Source: an uncultured Chloroflexia bacterium (GTDB lineage Bacteria; Chloroflexota; Chloroflexia; QHBQ01; JADMIH01). From it: DNA of 64,000 nucleotides. The translations under genes were made by a program, and so were the position numbers. The notes under the pieces are model-generated. The model was not told where the DNA came from. It worked only from the letters and a program-made list of their open reading frames with translations, and did not search any database. The DNA lies in NCBI GenBank assembly GCA_963797095.1, contig CAWCNY010000003.1:1056001-1120000 (forward strand), given 5' to 3'. This document shows, in pieces, positions 2,429 to 8,400 of the stretch; the first letter of the stretch is position 1, and the number at the start of each line of letters is the position of its first letter.

Positions 2429-4583
2429 CTATCGTCGTAAAGTTCCGCATGCAGGCAGCATCAAATTAGCAACGATCTTGGCGGTTTGGCCCCTGGTGAC
2501 CTGATTGCCCGGTCTGAAGTAGGGGCGGTTGCCTGGCCCTACGCACGGTTCGGGGTTGCCGCACGGGTAGCCGCCAATCGCCCACTTATCCGCGAGCCAT
2601 TCGATCGCTTCGTAGAAAGTGGAGCCGGGCGGCACATCCTCGAATGTTTGCCCGCTCACAGGCCCAACGACTCCCGCCGCGTTTGCCACGATCTTGGAGA
2701 GCTGTCCGCGCGTCGCGGTTGCCTGCGGGCGGAAGTAGGGCCGGTCGTCAGGTCCGACGCAAGGCTCACCTGGACCGCCGCATGGGTAGCCCGACATTAT
2801 TCCCCTCGCGAAAAAGTCGTTCGACATACTCGTAGAAGGTGGAGCCGGACGGCACATCCTCGAATGTTTGCCCGCTCACAGCATCGTTGAAGCCTGCCGC
2901 TTCAGACACGATCTTGGCCGCCTGCCCCCTGGTGATGCTGCTGTTGGGCCGAAAATAAGGGTCGCTGTCGCCGTCGCAAGGCTCTCTCGTACCGCCGCAC
3001 GGATAGCCGTTGATAATGCCTGCGCAGGCCAGGCACATTACGGGCGTGTAAAAGGTGCTATCCGGCGGCACATCCTGGAAGCGCACAGTGCAGACTGTGG
3101 GCGTGGCGGTCCCCGTGGCCCCCAGGGTGGGTTCCAACGTAGGGGTAGCCGGTGGTACAGGAGAGGTGCTCGTCGGCGTTTCGGTGGCGGTGGCGGTAGC
3201 GACCGGAGAGGTGGGGGTGGCTGAGGGGACAAGCGGAGTGTCCGTAGGCAGTGCAGTATCTGTGGCGACCGGAGATGGAGATGAGGTCGGGACCTGTGTG
3301 GACGTACTTGATGGCTCGATGGTTATGGTGGCGGTTGGCGTGCGAGTAGAGGTGGCGGTGGCCATAGAAGTAGACGTAGGCATAGCGGTGGAGGTGAATA
3401 AAGGAGTGGACGTAGCCACAGGTGATGGGGTGGGTGTGAACGTTCCACTCACGGGGATCATATCGGAGCAGTAGTAGCCCTGGCCGAAGCCTCCCGCTAT
3501 GTCCTCGCCCCCGTTGTACGCAATCGCGCCGTCAGCACGCTCGAAGATGAGGCTGTTGGCATATATGCCGGTGCCGCCCGCCTGGAAGAAATAGCCGTGG
3601 AACGCTACTCCCGGCAGGTCGCCGAGCCAGGGTCCGTACATGGTATCGGTGAGGCTGCTTGTCACCCTCAGGTTGCCCGCGATCCAGCCGGACGAGAAAG
3701 TGAACGAGCTCCCGACCATCATCGAATGGCTGTCGAGCGTGAACGTGCCGGTGAAGCCTCCGCTTGTTTGGCCTGTGAAGGTCGAGATAGGGTCGAAGTA
3801 CCCATCCGAGGAGCCTGCCGGCATATCGTGAACGACGAAGCGTGCCAGTATATCGCTCGGTTGCAGGGTGACCGTGTGCGTCACCGGCAGAGTGCGCGAG
3901 CCTGAGAAGATGCCGCCATTACTCGGGTCGTTGAAGCCGGTAAAGAGCTTGCCGTCTACGGTGATGAAGACCGGCACCGTACCCCCCGTTGGAGGCGACA
4001 TCACTCCCGTAAATGTGCCCCCGAGCCTGTATTGCGAGTAGCCTCCCGACGTAGATATCGAATGCACATAACCGTCGAGGAAGCGGGGGTAGAAAGGCTG
4101 GCTCGATTCCGCTGAGTGGAAGTTGGCCGTGAAGAGCAAGTTCATCGAGCCGACCGTATCGGTCACTATCAGATTATTTATCAGGAATCCGCGCGCTTCC
4201 TGCCCGATGGTCGATCCGGTGATGGCTATACCGTTGAGGTTATTCAATGAGAAAGTGCCCGATATGTCGCCCGCTACGCTCCCCGCGAACCTATCGTACA
4301 GAAGGAGGTTGCCGGTTGACGACCCTGTAGTGGTAAGTGGGGCTGTGGGTGCGAATTGCTCGTAGCTCTCGCCCGATTGGGGCGTGAACGGGCGCATATT
4401 GTCTTGTGTTACATTCGCGGTGAGGCTGAATTCGAGCGGTATATACGTGCAGGTGGTTGTTTGTGGCAAACCTGGGGTTGAGGATGGGTGCGCCCGCACG
4501 TCTCCTTGCTGAAAGAGAGCAAACGTAACAGCGCCTGTTACAAGGGCGAATAGGGCAACCAACAGGTTTGTCACACGCTTCAC
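2429..4583 (-). CDS. Secreted S-layer-homology (SLH) protein with Thr/Pro-rich linker; one apparent +1 frameshift
   Basis: GTG 4583 after GGAGG; signal peptide; three Cys-containing SLH repeats (FxDVPxxSTFY...PYFRP...TRGQxAKIV); removing one A from A5 at 2811-2815 joins ORFs 2766..4712 and 2429..2857 into ERLFARGIMSGYPC. Confidence 0.82.
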
Positions 4584-4658
4584 ACCGGCCTCCAATAACG
4601 AATAAGCAGGCGGGAGGAGCATGCAAAGTATTATACAAGCCCTGGCATCGCGATGGGC

Positions 4659-4741
4659 AAACAAAAAACCCGTACAATCCGTGAAGGACCATCCGGGTTT
4701 TTGTGCCTTCACTCTAGCAGGCGAACCTGCTTTTGCGAAGT
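4659..4741 (-). ncRNA. Candidate structured leader or small RNA ending in an intrinsic terminator
   Basis: Starts just downstream of a near-consensus promoter; CUUCGC/GUGAAG stem, AAA/AGA internal loop, AGCAGG-UUCG-CCUGCU hairpin, then long hairpin AAAAACCCG...CGGGUUUUUU. Confidence 0.55.
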
Positions 4742-4747
4742 GCTGTG

Positions 4748-4776
4748 AGTATAGAGGCTGTGGGCGACCCTGTCAA
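4748..4776 (-). promoter_or_regulatory. Sigma70-type promoter
   Basis: TTGACA (4776-4771), 17 bp spacer, TATACT (4753-4748). Confidence 0.75.
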
Positions 4777-4830
4777 TAGGATGGCCGGGGAAGTTTTCCA
4801 CATTTGCCATTTTCATGGAAGGGGGAAGGG

Positions 4831-7497
4831 TCAACTGTAGTAATAGGGGATCACCAGGGCAAGCAAGCCGTATAAGGCGAGCAGCAAAAGCAGGTTGGCG
4901 AGCACAAACCTTCGCGCGCCAGCCGCCTGGGGCCATCGCCCATCGATCAACAATCGCAGCCCCTCCACTACGAGCCACACCACCGGGATCGTGAGCACAA
5001 ACAGATACCGCCCCTGTGGAATAGATGGATAGCCTCCATAAGCGGTAAGCGCCATCTGCTTGGCGAAACTCACGGCTATCGCCACCACCAGGCTAATGAC
5101 CGAAATGAGGGCCAGCCAGGCGTGCCAACCCCACACTCGCTTGCGGCCCTCGACGGTGCGCACTACCAATCCGATAGCCGCCAGTACCAGCACGCATCCG
5201 ATCCCCAGGTATGCCACGTCGGGCAGGTCGATGGCAAGCCATCCAAAGCTACCCCAGAACGACCTGTACTGCTGCGTTGCATAATCGCTCCACAGGGCGA
5301 GCTTGCTGAACGGCTGGGGGTTGAGAAGCGCGCTAGCCATGTTCCTCACTTCCTCGGGAACTATCCCCTCGAAAAGAGGGCGCACAGCCCAGCGCCCTTG
5401 TTCCCCCGATGGGTCTACCAGCGCGGCCCTGTAGATCGGGTCATCCCACCTGCCGCCGGCAGCCTCAACCCTCAGCGACATGTCGTCGAACTGCACCCGC
5501 GCATCTGGCAGGCTGCCATCCCTCACCCCTATGATCAGCTCGATCTCTTCGGCGTTGGCCTGCGCGTCGCCCGTAACTTCCAATCTGGTCCATTCGCCCC
5601 CTTCGATCAAGATCCCCGTCGCCGATCCCGCCTCCCGCACACCGTCCATCACCGCTATCTCACCCGTTACATCTCCCTTGTCTGCGGTTGCGCCCGCCTG
5701 CGCCGGCACCAGGCGCAGCCACCCCGTCAGCGTCACGCGCAGGTCGGGGTGGTAGATAAGCGGTGGCATAAGCCTCTGCATGGCAACTGCTCCCTGTGTG
5801 GCTTCCAACTGGATGGCATGAGTTCCGTCGTGCGCCGACTCCGTTGCCACGAGTTGGGCGCTCTCAAGTGGTGTGTAGCTCACGAACCAGCCCGGCGAGG
5901 CTTCTTCGCGCATCTCGAACACCGAGAAGAATCCGCCCACCGCAATCACAACCACGATCAAAACGACGGCCCCTGCCCTCAATGCCCGGCTGTTGATCGG
6001 GAGCACCCTTCCCGTCCACGACCTGCGTGCAAGGCCCACCCCGACCCACACCAGGATGCCCCCCACCAGCATCGGGAGACCTGCGGCCACGGCCGTCGCT
6101 TTGGTAGCCACCCCAACGACGGCCAAAAGCACGCACAGCGCGGCCAGGGCTAACCCTCGTTGTGATACCCACTTATCCCCATTGGCATTGAAAGCCGATC
6201 TAACAAGCGCCATCACCGCCACGAACAGCGCCGACACCGCCACCTCCGCCAGTACATCGTTGTTGACAGATGTAGCAACAAACGTGTGCATCGGCAGCAG
6301 CGCCACCGCCATCGCCAGCCGCAGCCCAAGCGCCAGCCATGCCAGCGCCACCACTACCAAACCCAAAAAGAGCGATACCGAGCGCATCACATACAGCGAC
6401 ACTTCGGGATTCGTGTAGGGATCGGCGGGGATGCCCACCAGCCGGGCCGCTCGCAGGGCCACCGCGCACAGCCAGTAATAGCCGGGAGGCTGGCGCACCT
6501 GCTGGAACAGGTACGCGTCGGTGCGAGTGACCGCGCCCGGCGCGCTGTTGCCCCTCAACCTTCGCGTGAAATCGTTCCTGTCAGCTGAGGCGTTCACCGC
6601 CTCGATCAACTGCGTGTCGCGGTCCGCGCCGTCCAGGTCCAGCGCTTCCACCTCTCCGTTATCCAGGTCGTGCCTGTCCAGCAAAGCCACGTAAGCGTAA
6701 TGAGCGTATTCATCAGGCCCCTGCCAGGGCGGTGTGATCAACATGAAGAGCAGCCCGTACACCAACCCCACTGCGAGGGCCAAAGCGAGTGACCACCCCT
6801 TCCGCAAACGTGCTTCCCCACCGTCAAACCTCAGCACCATGCAAGCCCCTATCCCCGCTGCTCCAAGTATGAGCAGTCCCCACACCACCCAGGGCGATGT
6901 GCTCTCGCCCGCCCCCCCGATCATGCTCCCCCACACCTGGAGAGGCGGGGCGGCGTATTGCAGCCCAAATGCCAGGTCCCCCGGCGTCGGCTGCCCGTTG
7001 TAGTACGCTTCACCGTTGGCATAGGGATCGCCTCTCGGTTGAGGTTGGTACCAGAACACCGAGAGCGACCTCCCCGGCTCCCCAATCGGGGCCTCGATCA
7101 GCACAAAATACGACCTGCCCCCGCTGTCAGGTATGGCCGGGAAACTGAAAAGGTACCAGGGGTTTTCCTCAAACGACTCGCCCAACTGAAGCGTAACGGT
7201 GGCCAAATCCTCCCGCAAATCCGGCGAGGCGCGCAGGTGCATGACTAACGCGCCGCGTATGGCGTCGGTCTTGCGTCCATAAGTGGCTAGATGTACCTCA
7301 ACACCCGACAGGCCATCGTATCGCGCCACGAAGCTCTGCCCCACGCTCTCTCCCGCCAGCAATTCGCCCGGCGCCGAGTTGGCCGTGTCATAGCGGCGGT
7401 GGGTGGCGGCTACATATCCCGTCCAGAACACAAACAGCACCACCGTCGCCGGAAGCGCGTAGCGAATCGTGCGTGCAAGGCGGTTAATATATGTCAT
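4831..7497 (-). CDS. GT-C-type membrane glycosyltransferase (DUF2142-like) with extracellular beta-sandwich domains
   Basis: PPWQGPDEYAHYAY, VNNDVLA and QGRYLF motifs; many TM helices; CBM-like insert (HDGTHAIQL...FDDMSL). Confidence 0.7.
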   Translation of the reverse strand: MTYINRLARTIRYALPATVVLFVFWTGYVAATHRRYDTANSAPGELLAGESVGQSFVARYDGLSGVEVHLATYGRKTDAIRGALVMHLRASPDLREDLATVTLQLGESFEENPWYLFSFPAIPDSGGRSYFVLIEAPIGEPGRSLSVFWYQPQPRGDPYANGEAYYNGQPTPGDLAFGLQYAAPPLQVWGSMIGGAGESTSPWVVWGLLILGAAGIGACMVLRFDGGEARLRKGWSLALALAVGLVYGLLFMLITPPWQGPDEYAHYAYVALLDRHDLDNGEVEALDLDGADRDTQLIEAVNASADRNDFTRRLRGNSAPGAVTRTDAYLFQQVRQPPGYYWLCAVALRAARLVGIPADPYTNPEVSLYVMRSVSLFLGLVVVALAWLALGLRLAMAVALLPMHTFVATSVNNDVLAEVAVSALFVAVMALVRSAFNANGDKWVSQRGLALAALCVLLAVVGVATKATAVAAGLPMLVGGILVWVGVGLARRSWTGRVLPINSRALRAGAVVLIVVVIAVGGFFSVFEMREEASPGWFVSYTPLESAQLVATESAHDGTHAIQLEATQGAVAMQRLMPPLIYHPDLRVTLTGWLRLVPAQAGATADKGDVTGEIAVMDGVREAGSATGILIEGGEWTRLEVTGDAQANAEEIELIIGVRDGSLPDARVQFDDMSLRVEAAGGRWDDPIYRAALVDPSGEQGRWAVRPLFEGIVPEEVRNMASALLNPQPFSKLALWSDYATQQYRSFWGSFGWLAIDLPDVAYLGIGCVLVLAAIGLVVRTVEGRKRVWGWHAWLALISVISLVVAIAVSFAKQMALTAYGGYPSIPQGRYLFVLTIPVVWLVVEGLRLLIDGRWPQAAGARRFVLANLLLLLALYGLLALVIPYYYS

Positions 7498-7524
7498 GGG
7501 CCTGTTTGCAGGGTTTTCGCCCGG

Positions 7525-8400
7525 TCATGGCGAGATGCCGGGTGCGACCTCCGGCGTCGGAGTGAATATGCCCGGTAATGGCGTCGGCGGCTCAGCGAAC
7601 GTGGGCGGGATGATCCCCGGCAGTAGTGTAGGAGATTCCGTCGGGAGAATAATACCCGGTAGCGGTGTGGGAGGTTCTGTAGGAGCGGGCGGCACAGTGG
7701 ATGTCGGCTCCGCCGTCGGCGGTACCTCGGTGGGCAACGGCTCTGCTGTGTCGGTCGGCTGGGGCGGTGCCGGGCGAGTTGGCGGCACATAAGGTGTGCC
7801 AGTGGGTGCAGGTATCTCCGTGTCGGTCGGAAGGGGAAGGGCGGTCGGCGCTTCCTCAGGTATGGCCGTGGCCGGTAGCTCGGTGGAGGTGGCAGGCGCG
7901 GCGGGAGCGGTGGGACTCAGGATCACGGCTATGGCAGGCGCTGTGGCCGTCGGTAATCCGGCGTTGGAGCCGGGCTCATCCTGCGAGGGCTTGCCGGGTG
8001 ACAGCATTGCCAGCCCTGTCAAGAACACCCCCACCACCATCACGACCGCCAACCCTCCCACCAACAGCACTCCATAGTTGCGGCGGCGTCGAGGGAGAGG
8101 GTGGTGTCTGAGGGCCGGCCTGGGTGGCGCATAGCTCTGCGTATTTGCGATTGTCCCGGCGCTCGCGGCGGCAGGCGCAGGTGCGGGTTGCCTGGCTGGA
8201 AGGGGAGGCCAGGTGCTCTGGCGGCGAAGCACGTCGAGGTTGTACTTCCTTTCGAGGAAGGGGGGAATAGGGACCTCGCCCTGTGAGCTCGTGCTCCCGG
8301 CAACGTTCGCCGGGTGGCCCAGGTGGCCCAGCCCATTATCGCCTGCTTTTGCTGATCCAGGGTTGTCGGTGCTGATCCACCATATTGTACCCCATGCCAC
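7525..8400 (-). CDS. Single-pass membrane protein with Pro/Thr-rich repetitive C-terminus (start uncertain)
   Basis: RRRR then hydrophobic helix, then PT-rich tail with repeated PTPLPGI units. Confidence 0.6.
   Translation of the reverse strand: MAWGTIWWISTDNPGSAKAGDNGLGHLGHPANVAGSTSSQGEVPIPPFLERKYNLDVLRRQSTWPPLPARQPAPAPAAASAGTIANTQSYAPPRPALRHHPLPRRRRNYGVLLVGGLAVVMVVGVFLTGLAMLSPGKPSQDEPGSNAGLPTATAPAIAVILSPTAPAAPATSTELPATAIPEEAPTALPLPTDTEIPAPTGTPYVPPTRPAPPQPTDTAEPLPTEVPPTAEPTSTVPPAPTEPPTPLPGIILPTESPTLLPGIIPPTFAEPPTPLPGIFTPTPEVAPGISP

Follow-up and report, generated by a model that had tools for sequence, protein, structure and literature searches.

What does a near-consensus promoter transcribe when it runs directly into two stable hairpins and a tract of U residues? 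The question arises on the minus strand of a 64,000-nt stretch of DNA (here called the window) from an uncultured Chloroflexia bacterium, contig CAWCNY010000003.1, where the sequence TTGACA, 17 nt, TATACT (4776-4748) stands ahead of such an arrangement, between a gene for a DUF2142 membrane protein and a gene for a secreted SLH-domain protein. An earlier note on this DNA, made from the sequence alone, offered three answers: an attenuator, a riboswitch, or a small RNA (sRNA) of roughly 85 nt. The sRNA has gained from the analysis, as the unit has its own promoter and terminator and 11 copies in the genome, and the attenuator and riboswitch have lost, as neither a downstream gene nor an alternative helix is conserved. 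The locus is read here, with a probability of about 80%, as a stand-alone small noncoding RNA gene of about 80 to 90 nt, one of 11 paralogs in a family confined to a single order.

The promoter is of the sigma-70 type and lies exactly where the earlier note had placed it, with its -35 element TTGACA at 4776-4771, a 17-nt spacer, and its -10 element TATACT at 4753-4748. It matches 11 of the 12 consensus positions and is the sole promoter-like site that a promoter scan found in 2500-8000. The predicted RNA, of about 80 to 85 nt, occupies 4741..4659 on the minus strand, its start placed from the position of the -10 element and its end within the U tract at 4668-4659. A stretch of 91 nt folds into two hairpins at -38.1 kcal/mol (ViennaRNA), a stability that 0 of 200 shuffles reached (mean, -23.1; standard deviation, 3.1; z = -4.86). 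The 5' hairpin (4740-4707, minus strand) reads CUUCGC-AAA-AGCAGG-UUCG-CCUGCU-AGA-GUGAAG. Its outer stem, CUUCGC/GUGAAG (ACUUCG/CGRAGG in the family consensus), encloses an inner stem with a UUCG loop, and the previously described UUCG-capped hairpin closed by GUGAAG is thereby borne out by both sequence and fold. The 3' hairpin, ACAAAAACCCGGAUGGUCC-UUCAC-GGAUUGUACGGGUUUUUUGU, is 44 nt long (4704-4661, minus strand) and forms an intrinsic terminator with the U tract, which runs to 4659; here too, folding agrees with the terminator that the earlier note had drawn. A simple terminator scan did not report this hairpin because a bulge and an internal mismatch interrupt its stem. It is found, however, by ViennaRNA and by R1, a covariance model built for the 3' hairpin, which gives the copy at 4661-4704 a score of 65.2 bits.

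Is this architecture a product of chance? Ten further copies in the same genome argue that it is more than that. A DNA search of the genome returned a second copy that spans both hairpins and a third that spans the terminator, and motif search, nhmmer, and R1 together give a total of 11 copies, none with an E value above 1.9e-9. Beyond these, R1 matches just the antisense strands of the same 11 loci, with 22 to 27 bits versus 53 to 75 bits for the sense strands. Every copy has the marks of a stand-alone sRNA gene: a -35 element (TTGAC(A) or TTGAT), exactly 17 nt, a -10 element (TAnAnT), and the terminator hairpin, with no conserved open reading frame (ORF). The distance from the -10 element to the end of the U tract is 79 to 96 nt in ten copies and 303 nt in one. 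The 3' hairpins follow the consensus ACAGAAnCCCGGAUGRUCC-loop-GGAYUGUCUGGGUUUUCUGUUU, and the 5' hairpins vary widely among the copies in the genome. The family is a compact repeated unit made up of upstream boxes (described below), promoter, a 5' hairpin with a constant base and a variable interior, and a G-U-rich 3' hairpin with a U tract. Within the RNA, conservation falls on the base of the 5' stem, an AACAG linker, and the irregular 3' hairpin.

None of the families in Rfam 15 accounts for the unit. Searches with cmscan against 4227 families gave no match at E <= 10 in 4400-5000, none at E <= 1 for the ten other copies, and none at gathering score across the whole window; the earlier note had likewise been unable to place the RNA in a known riboswitch class.

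The 303-nt member of the family (G000:C1:109352-109654, minus strand; locus L015:2053-2355) also has no Rfam match. It keeps the family boxes, the promoter, the closing stem (ACUUCGG...CUUGAAGG), and the 3' hairpin, and a multi-stem insert of about 250 nt takes the place of the small UUCG hairpin. Full-length relatives are found in G017 (83% identity), G015 (71%), and G014 (70%), and in the structure predicted by RNAalifold from the four sequences of this type, 20 of the 89 pairs show compensatory changes. The long form was considered as the ancestor of the family and rejected: its full-length relatives are in 3 other genomes of the genus and in 0 of the 14 genomes of the other two families that carry the hairpin.

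The structure of the RNA is under selection at both hairpins. In the 11 copies of the genome, the 3' hairpin has 19 pairs, with 90.9% of cells paired and 10 pairs changed on both sides. Its covariation score was reached by 0 of 500 shuffles, and slid controls were at most 53% paired. The RNA as a whole was assessed with alignment A3, which holds 28 sequences of the 88- to 89-nt subfamily that includes the copy at 4659-4741, taken from published genomes of the genus together with two copies from the genome under study. None of the unpublished genomes G016, G021, G022, G032, and G152 enters A3, alignment A4, the promoter consensus, or the neighbor counts; they are included in the counts by genome for R1, for the 303-nt relatives, and for the regulator orthologs. 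Across A3, 89.2% of cells are paired and 19 of 35 pairs are changed on both sides, with 0 of 500 shuffles as good, and within the 5' hairpin (helix 1) 12 of 15 pairs are changed on both sides. Homologs with covariation, on which the earlier note had made its proposal depend, do exist in Chloroflexota, with both hairpins covarying (0 of 500 shuffles). The wobble pairs in the middle of the terminator stem (U-G, G-U, and G-U) are conserved and exchange with C-G, G-C, and A-C. Because these wobble pairs are kept and the antisense scores are weak, the signal belongs to the RNA strand and is not a DNA palindrome.

Could the unit encode a small protein instead? An AUG that follows GGAGGA inside the terminator was tried as the start of a conserved small ORF and rejected, since it is present in only 15 of the 28 A3 sequences (ACG in 9 and other triplets in 4; column 58). 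Also set aside was a 133-aa ORF at 4291-4692, which crosses the terminator into the SLH coding region in a different frame.

How widely is the family distributed? Within the genus, all 25 genomes have R1 matches at E <= 1e-4, with 3 to 17 in each (22 of 22 without the unpublished G016, G021, and G022). At the same threshold, matches are found in 6 of the 9 genomes of family f3 (6 of 8 without the unpublished G032) and in 1 of the 5 genomes of family f2, or 7 of 14 genomes in the rest of the order. Outside it, 0 of 123 sampled genomes (at least 80% complete) from eleven other families of the class gave a match at E <= 1e-6. The matches listed by an exact-pattern scan of one genome per species were mostly metagenome-assembled genomes (MAGs) labeled Chloroflexia or Chloroflexota. 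Ten other listed matches were inspected. Three, from Actinoplanes/Paractinoplanes, fall within a coding gene; five are hairpins of a generic, G+C-rich kind; one, from Desulfohalobiaceae, is without an evident paired stem; and one, a record named "uncultured bacterium," resembles a family member. Apart from this last record, the inspected matches are treated as chance. The family is most likely confined, among the genomes searched, to one order of uncultured Chloroflexia.

If each copy is a gene, what might control it? Upstream of the -35 element, 41 copies from published genomes share the consensus cCCTTCCA-N10-ggATGTGgAAAACT-N9-gcCtA-TTGAC. Box 1 (cCCTTCCA) keeps a constant spacing to the -35 element, as does box 2, (G)GATGTGGAAAACT in the family, to the promoter. 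The TTCCA of box 1 and the TGGAA of box 2 form an inverted pair, about two helical turns apart. At one locus of a single family f2 genome (L045 of G031), box 2 is 10 bp nearer the -35 element and so remains on the same helical face. On the minus strand of the window, box 1 is CCCTTCCA (4823-4816) and directly follows the TGA stop codon of the DUF2142 gene (4833-4831) and a preceding heptamer, a second CCCTTCC (4830-4824). Box 2 is ATGTGGAAAACT (4803-4792), 15 nt upstream of the -35 element. Box 1 is thus doubled at 4816-4830 as CCCTTCC-CCCTTCCA, and heptamer arrays (CCCTAAC, CCCTGAC) adjoin box 1 in several relatives, including L059, L053, and L066.

The combination of the two boxes occurs in the genome at six family copies and at three other sites. 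At one of the latter, G000:C5:599944 (minus strand), both boxes are intact (CCCTTCCAAAGATCGCAAGGATGTGGAAAACT) with no -35 element, -10 element, or RNA after them, and this site could be what remains of a unit that was truncated or interrupted. The other two are C6:800233, ahead of a protein gene, and one weak match. Box 2 in the form TGTGGAAAA also abuts the -35 element of four protein-gene promoters, namely, C6:800233 (+), C1:552877 (+), C2:1207707 (+), and C6:684627 (-). One ORF behind such a promoter starts with MKCPYCHYE and is presumably NrdR.

A candidate for the factor that binds these boxes is suggested by gene order. The family copy at C1:213148-213236 lies upstream of, and on the same strand as, the gene for an OmpR-type response regulator (C1:214401-215321) that carries an N-terminal extension. 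The same arrangement is found in at least nine genomes: this one, G002, G004, G007, G008, G009, G019, G024, and G041, with the synteny in G004, G007, G008, G009, G019, and G041 taken from a comparison of coordinates. In G007, the cluster consists of a kinase gene on the opposite strand; an sRNA followed by genes for DUF892 and a short-chain dehydrogenase; an sRNA followed by genes for the regulator, an FAD mono-oxygenase, and a kinase; a third sRNA; and a convergent gene. Each 3' hairpin in this three-copy cluster has a full promoter unit. Syntenic clusters with three to four copies each, L201 (G007:C24:5000-16500) and L202 (G009:C259:1500-12000), have the copies interleaved with stress-type genes, those for DUF892, short-chain dehydrogenase, OmpR-type regulator, FAD mono-oxygenase, and HAMP kinases. 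Orthologs of the regulator at 77% identity or more were found in 13 of the 16 genus genomes drawn and only within the genus. The best identity is about 55% in the two other hairpin-bearing families of the order and 57 to 66% in unrelated families.

How would such an RNA act? RNA polymerase would start near 4741 and stop in the U tract, and a factor at the boxes, with the OmpR-type response regulator as the candidate, would switch the copies on together. The RNA would then act in trans: an RNA-binding protein would use the constant 3' hairpin as a handle, and the specificity of each copy would come from its variable 5' domain. Such protein recognition is favored over seed pairing because the RNA is almost fully paired, and this is the weakest step of the chain. 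Pairing with neighboring genes was tried and rejected: the longest antisense matches of the copies to their own 8-kb flanks are 9 to 13 nt, and the flanks of the other ten copies yield matches at least as long. Near 4896 (minus strand), at the 3' end of the DUF2142 gene, 13 nt (AACCTGCTTTTGC) are exactly complementary to nucleotides 12 to 24 of the RNA, 149 nt upstream and on the same strand. In the G017 ortholog this match is lost (longest match, 9 nt), and it is probably due to chance. A decoy of the CsrA type was also rejected, as the GGA motifs, which lie in a stem, lack conservation and a search for a CsrA gene found none.

Several points weigh against a trans-acting sRNA under joint control. 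(i) The start, the end, and the expression of the RNA are predictions from the sequence. (ii) The RNA is almost wholly base-paired and offers no obvious single-stranded seed for targets. (iii) Searches for Hfq (PF17209), ProQ/FinO (PF04352), and CsrA (PF02599) gave 0 matches each in this 93%-complete genome, with control genomes responding as expected, although the genome is incomplete and their absence therefore unproven. As none of the three was found, the protein partner proposed above is a hypothetical one. (iv) The regulator appears limited to the genus, while the RNA hairpin reaches two other families; their co-occurrence thus lends no support to the putative link between them, which is one of synteny. 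(v) Box 2 may be a general promoter element rather than the site of a dedicated regulator. (vi) Read-through control of some neighbors is possible, given the same-strand ORF calls after 8 of the 11 copies and the DUF892 genes after copies at 5 loci.

One speculation goes further than the sRNA reading and is rather unlikely to hold in full: that the family is a modular RNA system, with a 3' handle for an RNA-binding protein, an exchangeable 5' domain mounted on the ACUUCG/CGRAGG stem, and joint two-component control through TTCCA/TGGAA. The exchangeable domain would then range from the 20-nt UUCG hairpin to the multi-stem structure of about 250 nt in the 303-nt copy.

What about the genes that surround the RNA? 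The downstream gene (2766..4583, minus strand) encodes a 605-aa secreted SLH-domain protein (PF00395; E, 9.3e-08) with a signal-peptide-like N terminus. It has a GTG start at 4583 preceded by GGAGG at 4593-4589 and is on the same strand as the RNA, 75 nt beyond the U tract. In between is a TATAAT hexamer (4635-4630, minus strand), noted earlier and indeed present, which was read by eye and is not listed in the promoter scan. With a weak -35 element (TTGCCC, 19-nt spacer), it is a candidate for a separate promoter of the SLH gene. The upstream gene (4831..7497, minus strand) encodes an 888-aa DUF2142 membrane protein (PF09913; E, 2e-21). It ends 55 nt before the -35 element with no other terminator between, and its transcript probably ends at the same terminator as the RNA. 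Read-through into the SLH gene is possible, though not as a conserved function.

Elsewhere in the genome, the company of the RNA is mixed. A same-strand ORF call lies 37 to 354 nt downstream at 8 of the 11 copies. Four of these have Pfam support (SLH, ThyX, PRC-barrel, and an OmpR-type regulator with a kinase). The other four, at C1_213k, C1_445k, C4_451k, and C7_171k, are without a Pfam match. They comprise one call of 177 aa, with two response regulators after it, and calls of 295 aa, 867 aa, and 247 aa; the 247-aa call, the one at C4_451k, is suspect, and a convergent gene may be there instead. At the remaining 3 copies, the downstream ORF is convergent and encodes an IS66 transposase, an alpha/beta hydrolase, or a protein without a Pfam match. 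For relatives, the nearest ORF on each side was taken at 46 further loci in published genomes of the order, giving 87 ORFs that were called mechanically and confirmed by Pfam only, 64 of them with a match at E <= 1e-5. Among the Pfam-confirmed downstream genes, 16 of 32 share the strand of the RNA and the other 16 are convergent; among the Pfam-confirmed upstream genes, 15 of 35 share it and 20 lie opposite. In G017, the ortholog of this locus has the DUF2142 gene (62% identity across 488 aligned C-terminal residues), the boxes, the promoter, and the RNA, and after them a convergent methyltransferase gene in place of an SLH gene. Since the neighbors are unrelated and the G017 ortholog has this context, the RNA has no fixed association with the SLH gene or with any gene family. 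Certain neighbors do recur. A gene for a Lon N-terminal domain is found beside the 79-nt subfamily at 6 loci, a DUF892 gene lies downstream of a copy on the same strand at 5 loci in relatives (DUF892 had no match in the genome under study), and Na+/H+ exchanger genes, TrkA-N genes, and HAMP kinases are also met repeatedly.

Might the unit serve its neighbors as well as itself? A real sRNA gene could have a promoter that also feeds the downstream gene by partial read-through of the terminator, and the SLH gene, or elsewhere a DUF892 gene or a two-component operon, would then be coupled to the same signal. The short same-strand gaps (37 to 354 nt) would suit such a dual function, as would the order of sRNA and DUF892 at 5 loci, that of sRNA and OmpR-type regulator in at least nine genomes, and a terminator weakened in mid-stem by three wobble pairs and a mismatch. 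It is not the common role of the family, however, as half of the downstream genes are convergent. A long G+C-rich stem with a U tract also predicts efficient termination, and a TATAAT hexamer stands between the terminator and the SLH gene. On balance, a dual function is unlikely.

Less likely still is a cis-acting leader, an attenuator or riboswitch in which a ligand or protein would choose for the SLH gene between the terminator and an antiterminator formed by GUGAAGG and CCUUCAC. The complementarity that suggested this is real: in the copy at 4659-4741, GUGAAGG (4712-4706) is the exact complement, over 7 bp, of CCUUCAC (4687-4681), as the earlier note had stated. The G017 ortholog keeps 6 of the 7 pairs of the alternative helix, including one exchange of U-A for C-G, a single case. 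A shorter pairing, AGGA/UCCU, is possible in 78.6% of cells, the SLH gene follows at 75 nt on the same strand with only a weak separate promoter between, and DUF892 genes and the operon of the OmpR-type regulator follow copies on the same strand in several relatives. What became of the layout of anti-antiterminator, antiterminator, and terminator that the earlier note had built on this? In A3, the 7-bp helix is paired in only 57.3% of cells, and 207 of 500 shuffles, as well as slid controls, are as good. The short 5-bp register AGGA/UCCU is without covariation. Forcing the 7-bp helix gives -21.0 versus -38.1 kcal/mol, a cost of 17 kcal/mol; in the ensemble the helix has a pair probability of 0, and at none of the transcript lengths tested does the 5' hairpin open. 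The layout, then, does not hold up. Nor do the downstream genes speak for a leader, being unrelated to one another and, in 16 of 32 cases, convergent; the G017 ortholog has no same-strand gene downstream, and there is no Rfam match at E <= 10. The resemblance to LoaP-type leaders that had also been proposed fares no better. The genome, at 93% completeness, yielded one NusG-family gene only (PF02357; C5:705378-705683), and because this NusG is single, without the paralog that had been looked for, no LoaP is indicated.

Least probable of all is that the unit is a repeated terminator or an element like a repetitive extragenic palindrome (REP) or a miniature inverted-repeat transposable element (MITE), which ends the upstream operon with an incidental promoter and no separate RNA, for although the DUF2142 gene ends 55 nt before the -35 element with no other terminator between and at 7 of the 11 copies in the genome a same-strand ORF call ends 52 to 123 nt before the delimited start of the RNA, this leaves aside a near-consensus promoter with an exact 17-nt spacer in 11 of 11 copies and conserved upstream boxes, an upstream gene that lies on the other strand in 20 of the 35 cases confirmed by Pfam among relatives, a hairpin made strand specific by G-U pairs (antisense, 22 to 27 bits; sense, 53 to 75 bits), and a 5' hairpin that covaries between promoter and terminator.

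How does a family of stand-alone sRNA genes compare with what is known? Sibling sRNA families include Qrr1-5 of Vibrio and RsmX/Y/Z of Pseudomonas. A further example is LhrC1-5 of Listeria, described as multicopy sRNAs controlled by LisRK (PMC4132741). Like these, the Chloroflexia family has several paralogs of about 80 to 100 nt per genome, each bracketed by a promoter and an intrinsic terminator of its own, an upstream promoter motif held in common that suggests a joint regulator, and one copy that adjoins a two-component system. Unlike them, it has 3 to 17 copies per genome, a higher number, there is no relation by sequence or through Rfam, and the genome yielded neither an Hfq nor a CsrA gene. 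The constant part also differs. In LhrC, Qrr, and Rsm, it is a single-stranded seed, whereas in the Chloroflexia family the terminator hairpin and the stem base are constant and a closed hairpin is variable.

The modular sRNAs of enterobacteria combine a 5' seed with a 3' terminator that binds a chaperone and depend on Hfq or ProQ/FinO (PMC9765468, PMC5391140). The Chloroflexia family shares with them a variable 5' part and a 3' terminator hairpin conserved beyond the needs of termination, and it differs in that searches of the genome returned neither Hfq nor ProQ/FinO. With trp-type attenuators, riboswitch platforms, and LoaP leaders, it has in common a promoter followed by an intrinsic terminator within 90 nt and, in one copy only, a 7-nt stretch able to pair with the terminator apex, as in attenuator leaders. 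It is unlike all of these in having no conserved alternative helix, no conserved downstream gene, and no aptamer-like core, and no NusG paralog was found.

To our knowledge, almost nothing is known of RNA-based regulation in Chloroflexota. The Chloroflexi-1 motif (RF01698) is likewise built of hairpins and occurs in several copies. It is a candidate noncoding RNA from the same bacterial class, and in the table of its source it is listed for Chloroflexus aggregans only (PMC2864571); cmscan matched it neither to the locus (E <= 10) nor to the ten other copies (E <= 1). Full-text searching for literature on small RNAs in Chloroflexota returned only the motif survey of 2010. Sibling sRNAs are thus a kind already known, and this particular family appears to be without a match in Rfam or in the literature that was searched.

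Overall, the family offers an entry point that can be searched with a model, present in 3 to 17 copies in every genome of a genus known from MAGs only, and its unusually conserved promoter architecture would define a regulon. For annotation, the consequence is that these units should not be taken as leaders of the genes beside them, in this case the SLH gene. If the 3' hairpin binds a dedicated protein, a new sRNA chaperone would be indicated. And should the modular system prove true, it would amount to a new regulon of sRNAs plus chaperone in Chloroflexia, with up to 17 differently "loaded" RNAs in a single cell.

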